Under the pieces are notes generated by a model that worked only from the letters and a program-made list of their open reading frames with translations, did no database searches and had not been told where the DNA came from. From an uncultured Acidobacteriaceae bacterium (GTDB lineage: Bacteria; Acidobacteriota; Terriglobia; Terriglobales; Acidobacteriaceae): a DNA stretch of 64,000 nucleotides. Positions 2,413 through 43,910 of this stretch are shown here, one piece after another; positions within the stretch are counted from its first letter, which is position 1; every line of letters begins with the position of its first letter. The stretch covers positions 419,949-483,948 of the forward strand of contig CAVYLL010000004.1 of assembly GCA_963769345.1 (NCBI GenBank). Reading direction: 5' to 3'. Made by a program: the position numbers and the translations under genes.

Positions 2413-2428
2413 TGTGTCACTCATCACA
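2413..2428. promoter_or_regulatory. CRP/FNR- or Rex-like operator upstream of nifJ
   Basis: TGTGT-cactca-TCACA, one mismatch to TGTGA-N6-TCACA, about 75 nt upstream of the nifJ ATG. Confidence 0.55.
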
Positions 2429-2501
2429 GCCCCTAACCTCCTCAAAGCAGAGACTCCTCATAGCGGTTTTTCTCCGCAGGCCGCGTCATGAGGCAAAGCG
2501 A

Positions 2502-5500
2502 ATGAGTGAACAGAAAATGGTCATTTTAGATGGGAACGAAGCCGCGGCTTCGGTTGCCTATCGACTCTCCGAAGTCGTTGCAATCTACCCGATTACCCCC
2601 TCGTCGCCCATGGCCGAGTGGGCCGATCAGTGGCTCTCGGAGGGGAAGAAGAATATCTGGGGCGCATTGCCCATCGTGGAAGAGCTGCAGAGCGAAGGCG
2701 GCGCGGCTGGCGCGTTGCACGGCGCGTTGCAGGCCGGTGCATTCGGCACCACCTTTACGGCCTCGCAAGGCCTGCTGCTGATGATTCCCAACATGTACAA
2801 GATCGCCGGTGAACTGACGCCGGCTACCATGCACGTGACGGCCCGCACCCTGGCGACCCACGCGCTTTCGATTTTTGGCGACCACTCCGACGTGATGGCC
2901 TGCCGCTCCACCGGCTGGGCGATGCTCGCATCGAACTCCGTGCAGGAAGTCGCCGACATGGCGCTCGTGGCGCAGATCGCCACCCTCGAGTCGCGCATCC
3001 CCTTCATTCATTTCTTCGACGGCTTCCGCACCTCGCACGAAGTCGGCAAGATTCTCCCCATCAGCGACGAGACCATCCGCGCGCTGGTCGATGACAAATA
3101 CATCATCCAGTTCCGCCAGAACGCGCTCAGCCCCGATCGCCCCCTCCTTCGCGGCTCCGCGCAAAATCCCGACGTCTTCTTCCAGGCGCGCGAAGCCTGC
3201 AGCCCATATCACGCCGCTGTCCCGGGCATCGTGCAATCGGTGATGAACCGCTTCGCGGTGCAGACTGGCCGCGCCTATCACCTGTTCGACTACTACGGCG
3301 CCGCCGATGCCGAGCGCGTCATCATCATCATGGGCTCTGGCGCTGAAGCCGCTGAAGAAGCCGTTGACCTGATGGTCAAAGCAGGGCGAGAAAATCGGCC
3401 TGCTCAAAGTTCGTCTCTATCGTCCCTTTGATGCCTCGGCCTTTATCAATGCGTTGCCCGCGACGGTCAAGTCCATCGCCGTTCTCGATCGCTGCAAGGA
3501 GCCGGGCGCGACAGGCGAGCCGCTTTATCAGGATGTCGTTACCGTCCTCGCTGAGCACGCCGACGACGCTGCCGTTTGCTGCGATGCCGACCATCGTTGG
3601 CGGTCGCTACGGCCTCTCTTCAAAGGAATTCACGCCCGCCATGGTCAAGGGCATCTTCGACGAACTGAACAAGACTGCTCCAAAGAATCACTTCACCATC
3701 GGCATCGACGACGACGTTTCGCACACCAGCCTCACCTACGATCCTGCATTCTCTACCGAAGATCCCAGGACCGTTCGCGCGCTTTTTTACGGTCTCGGCT
3801 CCGACGGCACCGTAGGCGCCAACAAGAACTCCATCAAGATCATCGGCAGCGAGACCGACAACTTCGCGCAGGGCTACTTCGTCTACGACTCGAAGAAGTC
3901 CGGTTCGATGACCACGTCGCACCTTCGCTTCGGCCCCAACCCCATCCGCTCCACCTACCTCATCACCCGCGCCAGCTTCGTGGCCTGCCACAACTTCAGC
4001 TTCCTCGAGAAGATGAACGTGCTTGAAGCAGCCATGCCCGGCGCGGTCTTCCTGCTCAACTCGCCTTACTCCGCCGCCGAAGTCTGGGACAAGCTGCCCA
4101 AATCGACGCAGGAAGAGATGCTGCGCAAGAAGATCGAGTTCTACGTCATCGACGGCTACACAGTGGCGCGCGAGGCCGGAATGGGCACGCGCATCAACAC
4201 CATCATGCAGACCTGCTTCTTCGCCATCAGCGGTGTTCTGCCGCGCGAAGAAGCCATCGCGCAGATCAAGAAGGCCATCAAGAAGACCTACGGCAAGCGC
4301 GGCGAGGCAGTCGTGCAGAAAGAACTACGACGCCGTCGATGCGGCACTCGCGCATCTTCACAAGGTCGAGTTGCCCTCCGCCGCCTCCTCTGACTTCGAT
4401 CTCATCCCGTCCATCTCCGGCAAGGCGCCGGAGTTCGTCCGCAACGTTCTCGGCGAAATCGCAGCAGGACGCGGCGATCTGCTCCCCGTCAGCGCCATTC
4501 CTGCCGGCGGCGCATTCCCGACGGCCACCGCGCAGTGGGAGAAGCGCAACATCGCGCAGTTCATCCCGGTGTGGGACAAGGATCTCTGCATCCAGTGCGG
4601 CAAGTGCGTCATGGTTTGCCCGCACGCCGTAATTCGCGCCAAGGTCTACAGCCCCGAACTCGGCGACAAGGCACCCGCAACCTTCAAGTGGGCCAAGCCG
4701 AAGTGGAAGGGCATGGAAACACGATCACTACACGCTGCAGGTTGCTCCGGAAGATTGCACCGGGTGCGCCGTTTGCGTGGACGTCTGCCCGGTAAAGAGC
4801 AAGAGCGACGCCAGCAAGAAGGCCATCAACATGGCGCCGCAGGCTCCGCTGCGCGAAGCCGAGCGCGACAACTGGGAGTATTTCCTTGACCTGCCCGAAG
4901 TCGACCGCAGCAAGCTTTCGCACTCGCAGGTAAAGGATCTGCAATTGCTGCAGCCGCTCTTTGAGTTCTCGGGCGCCTGCGCCGGTTGCGGCGAAACCGC
5001 CTACATTAAGCTGCTTACCCAGCTCTTTGGCGATCGGCTCTACGTCGCCAACGCAACAGGCTGCTCGTCGATCTACGGCGGCAACCTGCCCACCACGCCC
5101 TACAGCAAGAATCCGTCAGGCCGCGGTCCGACCTGGGCCAACTCGCTCTTCGAAGACAATGCGGAGTTCGGCTTCGGCATGCGCACCGCGCTCGATCAGC
5201 AGAAAGCCTTTGCGGAAATGCTGGTCACGCGCCTCGCATCCGCTATTGGGCCGGAGCTTGCCGCCGATATCGTCAATGCGTCGCAGAAGACCGAAACCGG
5301 AAATCAATGCGCAGCGCGAGCGGGTGAAGATCCTCTCCGCGAAGCTCGCCGGCATCGATTCCTCTGATGCGCGCAACCTGCTGGCAATTGCCGAAACGCT
5401 GGTTCGCAAGAGCGTGTGGATTCTGGGCGGCGACGGCTGGGCGTTCGACATCGGTTTCGGCGGGCTCGACCACGTGCTCGGCTCCGGCAAGAACGTCAAC

Positions 5501-6133
5501 GTGCTCGTTCTCGACACCGAGGTTTACTCGAACACCGGCGGTCAGTCGTCCAAGGCCACGCCGCGCGGCGCAGTTGCCAAGTTTGCCGCGGCTGGAAAGC
5601 AAAACAGCAGAAAAGACCTGGCAATGGAAGCCGTCAGCTACGGCTCTGTATATGTTGCGCAGGTCGCGCTCGGCGGCAACGACAGTCACGTGGTCAAGGC
5701 CTTCCAGGAGGCTGAAGCGCACGACGGCCCGTCGATCATCATCGCTTACTCAAGCTGCATTGCCCACGGCTACGACCTGGTGCACGGACTCGAGCAGCAA
5801 AAGCTCGCTGTTCAGTCCGGCTACTGGCCGCTCATGCGCTATAACCCCGCGTTGCGTGAAGAAGGCAAGAATCCGTTCCAGCTGGATTCAAAAGCTCCGT
5901 CAATCCGGCTCAAGGAATATGCCTACCGCGAAGCACGCTACACCATGCTTGCGCGCAGCAATCCTGAGATGGCTGCCACGCTGCTTAAAGAAGCACAGGA
6001 CGATGTCGAGCGCCAGTGGCGCGTCTACTCATCCCGCGCCTCCATGCCGGGTCGTGGCGAGACTCCGAACATTGCGCCCGCAGAAAAGCCGGAAGAGAAA
6101 CTGGCAGCCCCGCCTGCCGGAGGATCAAAATGA
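2502..6133 (+). CDS. nifJ: Pyruvate:ferredoxin (flavodoxin) oxidoreductase, homodimeric type; about 5 frameshifts (~3385, ~3575, ~4325, ~4720, ~5300)
   Basis: [37 protein letters not shown], two 4Fe-4S motifs ([24 protein letters not shown]), [16 protein letters not shown] motif [10 protein letters not shown]...[11 protein letters not shown]. Domains are collinear across successive frames. Confidence 0.95.
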
Positions 6134-43244: not shown

Positions 43245-43251
43245 ATCCGAC

Positions 43252-43848
43252 CTACCGCACCGTTTCGAACTTCTCCCACGGGTAATTACACGCCGGGCAG
43301 TTCTCGCCTTCGGCAGTTTGTGCAGCATATCCGCAAAGCGTGCACACAAAGAAGTCGTGCGGTTCATACGCCCAGCCTGACTTGACGGCGGCATTCACCA
43401 GCGGCATAACATCGTCGTACAAGCGCACATGAGACTTGTCGGCTTCAAGAGCCCAGTGAAAACTTCGAGCCGCCGTCGAATCAAACAGCGGAACCGCAGC
43501 TGTAAGAAAAGTGGGATAGAGATAGTCCACTTCGAACTTCTGATCGACGAGAGCCGCGTTCAAATTCTCCAGCGTGCTCTCCACGCGCGGCATTGGCACA
43601 TCGATCATTGTCGAGCCGCCCATATGTCTTAACAGGCGTGCATGATTGCTGGCATGAATCTGTTCGGCCCGTGCCGTCGCGCGAAATAGGCTCGCAATCC
43701 CGCGGTAACCCTCTTCTTCAGCCCTCACAGCGTATGCCTTGTTAGCCGCAATCGTCTTCGTCTCTTCTTCAAAGGCGGTCTCAAGGTTTCGGATCACCGT
43801 AAGATCCTCAACCCCGATCCCGTGAGCGATCATGCGATCCGTTGCCAT
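43252..43848 (-). CDS. Rubrerythrin-family protein with C-terminal rubredoxin domain and atypical diiron ligands
   Basis: NLETAFEEE, AEEEGY, AEQIH, DQKFE, ADKSH, CTLCGY...CPAC. Confidence 0.85.
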   Translation of the reverse strand: MATDRMIAHGIGVEDLTVIRNLETAFEEETKTIAANKAYAVRAEEEGYRGIASLFRATARAEQIHASNHARLLRHMGGSTMIDVPMPRVESTLENLNAALVDQKFEVDYLYPTFLTAAVPLFDSTAARSFHWALEADKSHVRLYDDVMPLVNAAVKSGWAYEPHDFFVCTLCGYAAQTAEGENCPACNYPWEKFETVR

Positions 43849-43894
43849 ATCCCAAAACTTCCCTCACTCCGTTAGATGCACGACGGAGCGTTCA

Positions 43895-43910
43895 GGTGAT
43901 GCCGATCACA
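43895..43910. promoter_or_regulatory. GTGA-N6-TCAC operator upstream of rubrerythrin
   Basis: GGTGA-tgccga-TCACA, about 47 nt upstream of the ATG. Confidence 0.6.

Follow-up and report, generated by a model that had tools for sequence, protein, structure and literature searches.

Activators of the Crp/Fnr superfamily that recognize a CRP-type half-site and act from a class II position are well known from other phyla. In cyanobacteria, the hox genes are regulated by LexA and by the AbrB-type proteins CalA and CalB. The Fnr proteins of Bacillus and Paenibacillus respond to O2, bind TGTGA-N6-TCACA, and activate anaerobic and hydrogenase genes; three C-terminal Cys residues and an Asp ligate their [4Fe-4S] cluster, and several paralogues use the same sites (bioRxiv 10.1101/2020.01.03.894683). 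HcpR1 of Desulfovibrio has Arg, Glu, and Arg at positions 1, 2, and 6 of its recognition helix, uses TGTGA-N6-TCACA, regulates its own gene, and has ~90 predicted targets (PMC5701242). Here, we describe a palindromic operator, GTGA-N6-TCAC, in a 64-kb stretch of acidobacterial DNA (the window; C4:419949-483948, where C is the contig number) from a genome of 5.69 Mb in 10 contigs. This source genome (G000) was placed in Terracidiphilus (Acidobacteriaceae), and its nearest relatives are metagenome-assembled genomes from soil and peat; G001 denotes its closest relative, and other G numbers denote the further genomes compared. The operator is real: it occurs genome-wide, is conserved, and is of the Crp/Fnr type. 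In the window, it precedes the genes for pyruvate:ferredoxin(flavodoxin) oxidoreductase (PFOR; nifJ), a bidirectional hydrogenase (hox), a pyrophosphate (PPi)-type phosphofructokinase (pfk), and a rubrerythrin-family protein (rbr). With a probability of about 0.7, the operator and a set of FNR-like regulators would constitute a global low-oxygen/energy regulon that works by class II activation.

A pattern search of the window gave four exact matches to GTGA-N6-TCAC (13587, 14617, 38640, and 43896). Three of them are intergenic, before hoxE, pfk, and rbr, and the fourth (13587–13600) is in the coding sequence of hoxF. The expectation from base composition is 0.87 matches, and dinucleotide shuffles of the window gave a mean of 0.77, with four or more in 1 of 100 shuffles. 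The operator of nifJ, cTGTGTcactcaTCACAg, is at 2413–2428 on the forward strand; it is imperfect, with one mismatch in its core (GTGT-N6-TCAC, 2414–2427), and is followed by nifJ (2502–6133, forward strand). The hoxE operator, cGTGAccgcggTCACg, is a perfect palindrome at 14616–14631 on the reverse strand (exact core 14617–14630), 93 nt upstream of the hoxE start at 14524. The hoxE-F-U-Y-H-W operon (9204–14524, reverse strand) encodes, according to Pfam, an NAD-linked bidirectional [NiFe] hydrogenase and a maturation protease, the latter of the HycI type in Pfam and NCBIfam. The pfk operator, aGTGAgcacggTCACg, occupies 38639–38654 on the forward strand (exact core 38640–38653) and precedes the gene for 6-phosphofructokinase (Pfam PFK; 38794–39828, forward strand), whose start is probably the ATG at 38794, which is conserved and has a GGAGA ribosome-binding site. 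The Asp of GGDD and the Lys of PKTIDND in this protein align with Gly104 and Gly124 of the Escherichia coli enzyme, and Asp and Lys at these positions are the determinants of the PPi type. The rubrerythrin operator, gGTGAtgccgaTCACa, is at 43895–43910 on the reverse strand (exact core 43896–43909), 48 nt upstream of the start of rbr at 43848. It lies between rbr (Pfam Rubrerythrin; 43252–43848, reverse strand) and crcB, a fluoride channel gene upstream of it (Pfam CRCB; 44035–44412, reverse strand). The rbr product scored under the cut-offs of both the rubrerythrin and the nigerythrin models of NCBIfam. The first-pass annotation of this DNA had written the four sites correctly, with that of nifJ deviating by one base, and its gene identities (PFOR, Hox, PPi-type PFK, and rubrerythrin family) agree with the domain searches and the PFK residues. 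Its count of three intergenic exact matches was also correct, but the exact match in hoxF had been overlooked.

The genome contains 141 exact matches to GTGA-N6-TCAC, compared with 78 expected from base composition. Intergenic space was defined with a rough codon-usage gene caller, by which genes cover ~80% of the genome, and the remaining ~20% holds 87 of the 141 matches. When the same arms were separated by spacers of N0–N5 or N7–N12, only 4–18 intergenic matches were found for each, so the excess is specific to the 6-base spacer and corresponds to ~75 sites. Sites with one mismatch are weakly enriched (407 intergenic at N6 versus ~335 at N5, N7, and N8); therefore, the nifJ site was not acceptable on its sequence alone, and a comparison across the genus was needed. 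The symmetrised logo reads tGTGA(not A)N4(not T)TCACa, also written tGTGA(y)N4(r)TCACa. A weak T precedes GTGA, and an A directly after GTGA is strongly avoided (13 of 174 half-sites). Otherwise there is no information outside the core, and these flat flanks show that the sites are not copies of a repeat element. The palindromic form with arms of 4–5 bp and a gap of 6 bp, together with the enrichment in promoters, is that of Crp/Fnr superfamily operators, and the consensus reads as CRP-type, not Rex-type. The RedB family is unrelated, as its motif is non-palindromic and AT-rich. A second intergenic palindrome with a spacer-specific excess, TCTC-N6-GAGA, was found in 110 intergenic copies. It was rejected as a relative of the operator, since it is explained by a REP (repetitive extragenic palindromic)-like hairpin, GGGTGCCCCAGGTCTC-N6-GAGACCTGGG(A), which is present in ~85–110 copies in the genome and also lies just after pfk (39874–39911).

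The footprints of the sites were compared in 24 genomes of the same genus. At hoxE, the exact site is found at the same position in 18 of 20 loci with 12 different spacers, and the flanks are otherwise little conserved. The pfk site does not shift in position: of 23 loci, at least 11 have it in exact form and ~6 with one mismatch, and the proximal TCAC hardly varies. The imperfect variant of nifJ recurs as GTG[T/C]-N6-TCAC at the equivalent position in all 16 genus orthologues. Of four close orthologues of rbr, three are preceded by an exact site at −59 to −61, and adjacent or paralogous rubrerythrin genes are preceded by exact or one-mismatch sites. Conservation upstream of orthologues, proposed in the first-pass annotation as a check, thus holds across the genus for all four sites, and the idea that nifJ, hoxE, pfk, and rbr have one Crp/Fnr-type operator in common is supported by these footprints. 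Outside the window, an exact site precedes the gene for the H+-translocating pyrophosphatase (H+-PPase; G000:C10:367251) in 15 of 20 genus loci and that for the small subunit of a group-1-type uptake [NiFe] hydrogenase in 13 of 15. Of 20 loci compared, only those of G000 and G001 contain the exact match inside hoxF, and it has the disfavoured A after GTGA. It was rejected as a functional site and taken as a chance match in coding sequence because only the source genome and its closest relative have it.

The uptake hydrogenase promoter (G000:C6:93342; relatives L265-L278) often carries a pair of exact operators separated by ~58 nt, which lie roughly at −180 and −121 relative to the start codon, an arrangement that suggests tandem, class III-like control. 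Most genus members have a conserved block (TTTCAc.atgTGGgAtt; 2375–2400) immediately before the nifJ site; it may be the site of a second regulator or an UP-like element.

The promoter geometry was analyzed with 83 site–gene pairs oriented towards the gene. The starts of "TA" peak 22–23 nt past the site (22 of the 83 pairs, versus ~3 per other offset), as does the best −10-like hexamer. Individual −10 boxes were assigned by conservation, with the hexamer taken as −12 to −7. For nifJ, this is GAGACT (2450–2455, forward strand), 22 nt after the site and conserved in the alignment as gAGACTc. For hoxE, it is TAAAAC (14587–14592, reverse strand), 24 nt from the operator and conserved as gTAaAAca in the alignment of 20 genus loci; the box is 22–24 nt past the site in relatives, and related strains are one base shorter there. 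For pfk, it is TATACT (38677–38682, forward strand), 23 nt after the operator, which is TAcACT in relatives. The promoter of fnrB, which encodes one of the candidate regulators described below, likewise has a −10-like box 22–24 nt after its site, and that of H+-PPase has TAGGCT 23 nt after its exact operator. The centres of the sites would accordingly lie at approximately −40.5 to −42.5 (~−41.5), the class II activator position of CRP and FNR, and FNR-like regulators probably activate from the operator in class II fashion. The pfk site had previously been placed near −42 relative to TATACT, and the same geometry was found here. The hoxE site had been thought to overlap the −35 region and to act in a different mode. 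The TATACT beside it was rejected as the −10 box since it is not conserved, and the conserved TAaAAC further downstream would give the same class II arrangement as at pfk; a different mode at hoxE is thus not supported.

Two further stretches of the pfk leader (38660–38710) are conserved throughout the genus: cTTTACA, which lies between operator and −10 box, and TAAGGCGTCGAG, which follows the −10 box directly. They could serve as the binding site of another factor, as an alternative −35 element, or as a leader element. A pairing of TTTACA as −35 with TCTAAG as −10, which would place the site near −50, was considered less probable, given that TAcACT, at an offset of 23 nt, agrees with the genome-wide peak. 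Public sequencing runs yielded contigs of related strains and a single metatranscriptome contig over the hoxE promoter. This contig of 357 nt from soil (run X11; window 14362–14719) extends from the 5′ end of hoxE across the operator into the end of the Ni-transporter gene upstream. It could reflect read-through transcription or DNA carry-over and is uninformative on the transcription start.

To define the content of the regulon, ~65 genes that follow exact sites were annotated with Pfam and NCBIfam. The targets in H2 metabolism are the HoxE operon, HypC, and the uptake hydrogenase small subunit. Those in respiration and electron transfer are NuoA (two sites), a NapG/NapH-like polyferredoxin, a cytochrome c assembly protein, ATP synthase b, and five c-type or multihaem cytochromes. 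Iron, Fe-S, and haem metabolism is represented by an IscA-type protein, FeoA, an AhbD-like radical-SAM (S-adenosylmethionine)/SPASM protein, and a HemY-type protoporphyrinogen oxidase, and stress by thioredoxin and two genes for tandem universal stress proteins (Usp; two sites each). Carbon and energy targets comprise H+-PPase, glyceraldehyde-3-phosphate dehydrogenase (GAPDH), phosphoketolase, acetyl-CoA hydrolase/transferase, an AlaDH/PntA-type dehydrogenase, and a class II aldolase, and an α-galactosidase is a further target. Regulatory targets are cyclic nucleotide (cNMP)-binding proteins, a sigma-54 response regulator, and fnrB. Genes without an obvious link encode exopolysaccharide (EPS) export proteins, TonB-type barrels, immunoglobulin-like DUF1573 proteins, MacB, DnaA, PurC, and GltX. 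As a raw share, about half of the ~65 annotated targets have energy or redox functions, and judged by annotation these functions would be typical of FNR regulons. The notion of an anaerobic regulon was thus essentially right but too narrow: instead of a small fermentative H2 set, the regulon is global, comprising at least 87 exact intergenic sites, and it includes targets with no obvious anaerobic link. With an operator at class II distance before the H+-PPase gene and a PFK of the PPi type, a PPi-based energy economy appears to be co-regulated with the hydrogenases.

The domain search detected 12 HTH_Crp_2 proteins in the genome. Three of them have the recognition helix RETVTR, which aligns with RETVGR of CRP and matches Arg180, Glu181, and Arg185, the residues expected for a GTGA half-site. 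Two of the three, FnrB (G000:C8:93078-93827) and FnrA (C5:1000973-1001686), have an N-terminal CxxCx8C motif and the domains cNMP_binding, HTH_Crp_2, and Crp. An exact site lies 61 nt upstream of the fnrB start, and fnrA is located downstream of a tandem-Usp gene with two sites. Of 80 fnrB orthologues in public genomes, 79 are preceded by the exact site, and all 80 keep nine Cys residues unchanged, those of CxxCx8C among them; the FnrB of the cultured relative Occallatibacter savannae AB23 is 90% identical. The CxxC of both proteins aligns with Cys20 and Cys23 of FNR, and the third Cys lies three residues later than the corresponding ligand of FNR, Cys29. FnrA has a Cys three residues before the position of FNR Cys122. 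The NCBIfam FNR model gave 32 and 58 bits against a cut-off of 228, and no curated NCBIfam model was reached. The C-terminal Cys cluster of the Bacillus-type Fnr is absent from the regulators, and in place of the E-x-x-S-R helix and the TTGAT-N4-ATCAA operator of FNR there are R-E-T-V-T-R and GTGA-N6-TCAC. A regulator encoded outside the window had been postulated, and the likely ones, FnrA and FnrB, are indeed on other contigs and resemble FNR-type redox/O2 sensors. The claim of a single trans-acting regulator was not established because at least two and possibly three paralogues have the same helix. Sorting the sites to FnrA or FnrB by eye, using spacer and flank bases, gave no clear split.

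FnrB and hox co-occur. Within the genus, 20 genomes encode an orthologue of FnrB (identity of at least 78%). G003, G010, G013, and G019 do not, and precisely these four lack hoxE. Conversely, 20 of the 21 genomes with hoxE have FnrB, and the exception, G002, is 71% complete. The exact test on the 2 × 2 table, calculated by hand, gave ~4e-4. The motif excess over a reversed-pattern control is 1.5-fold in G013 and G019 versus ~3-fold in most other genomes, and no site was found before the H+-PPase gene in G003, G010, and G019. The complete genomes G013 and G019 are without hox, nifJ, and FnrB, and their pfk sites are degenerate, which looks like a lineage loss of the whole regulon.

Here, we propose a mechanism of regulation in which we infer the pairing of paralogues with sites, activation as the mode, and O2 or redox state as the signal from sequence comparison. 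A regulator dimer would bind the palindrome via the CRP-type recognition helix R-E-T-V-T-R. In most target promoters, including those of nifJ, hoxE, and pfk, the site would be located ~41.5 bp upstream of the transcription start, where it would replace the −35 element and recruit RNA polymerase by class II activation. The paralogues FnrB and FnrA are the most likely regulators, and with their N-terminal CxxCx8C they may hold an O2- or redox-labile Fe-S cluster, so that the regulon would be turned on when oxygen runs out. The regulon would couple pyruvate oxidation by PFOR with H2 evolution and uptake (Hox, the group-1 [NiFe] hydrogenase, and HypC), PPi-based glycolysis (PPi-PFK, H+-PPase, GAPDH, and phosphoketolase), and peroxide defence by rubrerythrins, and also with Usp proteins, c-type cytochromes, ferrous iron uptake, and the regulator's own gene. 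A more specific version is possible but doubtful. In this version, a lineage-specific pair of FNR-like proteins, with non-canonical CxxCx8C and CRP-type specificity, would share the one operator, and FnrB, lacking the canonical fourth-ligand Cys, would be inherited together with Hox. The pair would then form a graded, hierarchical O2/redox switch between H2-evolving, PPi-economised fermentation (PFOR–Hox, PPi-PFK, and H+-PPase) and H2 uptake with respiration.

Several observations weigh against a low-oxygen regulon under FNR-like activators. The targets include aerobic-type functions (NuoA, ATP synthase b, and the HemY-type oxidase) as well as unrelated genes for EPS export and TonB-type outer membrane proteins. 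No clear −10 box was found in the alignment of the rubrerythrin promoter, and some sites in the genome are not at class II distance. The Cys spacing in FnrA and FnrB is x8 versus x5 in FNR, and FnrB has no Cys at the position of FNR Cys122, with six other invariant Cys residues. The third RETVTR paralogue is without the Cys motif and could bind the same sites. The closest solved homologues of FnrB by sequence are the cAMP-binding proteins CRP of Mycobacterium tuberculosis and GlxR of Corynebacterium glutamicum (E ~5e-19). Finally, the motif excess is kept without an FnrB orthologue in G003, G010, and sister-family genomes, which indicates that other family members share the core motif.

The alternative that survives best, although unlikely, is a catabolite regulator of the cAMP–CRP type, which would control carbon and energy metabolism through a cyclic nucleotide and not through oxygen. 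The core of the operator is identical to the motif of CRP, GlxR, and M. tuberculosis CRP, and the latter two are the best PDB matches of FnrB by sequence. The presence of pfk, gap, phosphoketolase, α-galactosidase, and TonB-type receptors among the targets would also suit such a regulator, and stand-alone cNMP-binding proteins are themselves targets. Yet key cAMP contacts are missing: of the contact residues of CRP (Glu72, Arg82, Ser83, Thr127, and Ser128), Arg82 and Ser83 align with Tyr and Glu in FnrB, His and Glu in FnrA, and Ser and Glu in the third paralogue, so that none of the three RETVTR proteins has the Arg/Ser pair. Two of them carry the invariant N-terminal Cys motif aligned with Cys20 and Cys23 of FNR, FnrB co-occurs with hox, and hydrogenases, cytochromes, Usp, and Fe-S proteins dominate the targets.

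A sensor of NO, CO, or another small molecule similar to HcpR or CooA, possibly heme-based, would make this a response to nitrosative or reductive stress instead of O2. Desulfovibrio HcpR1 provides a precedent with its R, E, R helix, its TGTGA-N6-TCACA operator, and its autoregulation (PMC5701242), and the targets here include rubrerythrin, thioredoxin, and Fe-S assembly genes. We regard this alternative as improbable, since most targets (Hox, PFOR, PPi-PFK, H+-PPase, the uptake hydrogenase, cytochromes, FeoA, and Usp) fit O2 limitation better and the N-terminal CxxC aligns with the cluster ligands of FNR.

Rex, the sensor of NADH/NAD+, had been named as a possible regulator; its half-sites include GTGA/TCAC and the targets are redox and fermentation genes, but it is excluded here, barring a rex gene in the ~7% absent from the assembly. 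Its N-terminal DNA-binding domain PF06971 had no match in the 93% complete genome, whereas it was detected in control genomes. Only 13 of 174 half-sites have an A after GTGA, in contrast to the GTGAA...TTCAC (TTGTGAA-N4-TTCACAA) of Rex sites, and the sites are located at what appear to be activator positions. That the four matches are due to chance or a repeat element, as the mere eight fixed bases and the one chance match among the four exact ones in the window might suggest, can practically be dismissed in view of the spacer-specific excess, the unconserved flanks, and the genus-wide positional conservation with free spacers.

The order nifJ, hox, pfk, and rubrerythrin gene within ~42 kb is also found in the complete genome G007 (C1:3630993-3673743) and in G001, and the region 2400–44000 of the window is a conserved "anaerobic" neighbourhood. 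Many genes are frameshifted in the assembly: nifJ (2502–6133), hoxF (12367–14014), a NicO-type Ni transporter gene (14711–15480), a fucosidase gene (7914–9033), and the phosphoketolase gene (G000:C5:1018523-1020940). The PFOR domains POR_N, POR, EKR with Fer4, and TPP_enzyme_C of nifJ each lie on a separate open reading frame, in four frames, but nifJ of relatives is one open frame of ~1240 amino acids. Short-read contigs of related strains are one base shorter at 13436, 13556, 13999, 14529, and 14603. The frameshifts are probably indel errors of long reads and not pseudogenes. The genome is 93% complete despite having only 10 contigs.

Terracidiphilus is abundant in peat and acidic soils and is thought to alternate aerobic polymer degradation with fermentation that feeds H2 to methanogens; the metagenomic study of the genus described [NiFe] hydrogenases and fermentative potential, with no mention of Fnr, Crp, or transcription (PMC9599518). 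Our literature search found no account of oxygen sensing in Terracidiphilus or of the regulation of its aerobic/fermentative switch, and no description of a Crp/Fnr regulon in Acidobacteria. The present analysis provides a genus-conserved regulon of ~90 sites with named candidate sensors and a predicted promoter architecture, which can be tested in cultured relatives and used for reading peat metatranscriptomes. It would also tie PPi-dependent glycolysis and H+-PPase to the same switch as the hydrogenases.

Among the known systems, E. coli FNR shares with the acidobacterial regulators the Crp/Fnr fold and an N-terminal Cys motif whose CxxC aligns to Cys20/Cys23. FNR likewise controls an extensive set of anaerobic and energy genes, those for hydrogenase and maturation among them, through a 14-bp palindromic operator with 4-bp arms, and its class II position near −41.5 is also the one predicted here. 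The helix and the half-site differ (E-x-x-S-R and TTGA(T) in FNR, R-E-x-x-x-R and GTGA here), as do the cluster ligands, with the third Cys after x5 and the Cys122 ligand in FNR versus x8 and, in FnrB, no Cys at the Cys122 position. Unlike in the Fnr of Bacillus and Paenibacillus, which belong to another phylum, the Cys motif is N-terminal, and the targets are the [NiFe] Hox hydrogenase, PFOR, and PPi-PFK. HcpR1 of Desulfovibrio is similar in its R/E/R helix, operator, and autoregulatory site, but it is tied to NO and nitrate stress, probably senses by heme, and is not tied to hox, PFOR, or glycolysis. M. tuberculosis CRP (Rv3676) and Corynebacterium GlxR, which are global regulators of carbon metabolism and respiration, have the same core motif; they bind cAMP, whereas the acidobacterial proteins are without the Arg/Ser cAMP contacts and have a Cys-rich N-terminus. 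The hoxEFUYH operon type and the association with PFOR are shared with the cyanobacterial hox systems, in which the promoters carry LexA and AbrB sites, whereas here a Crp/Fnr operator is found at what is predicted to be the class II distance.

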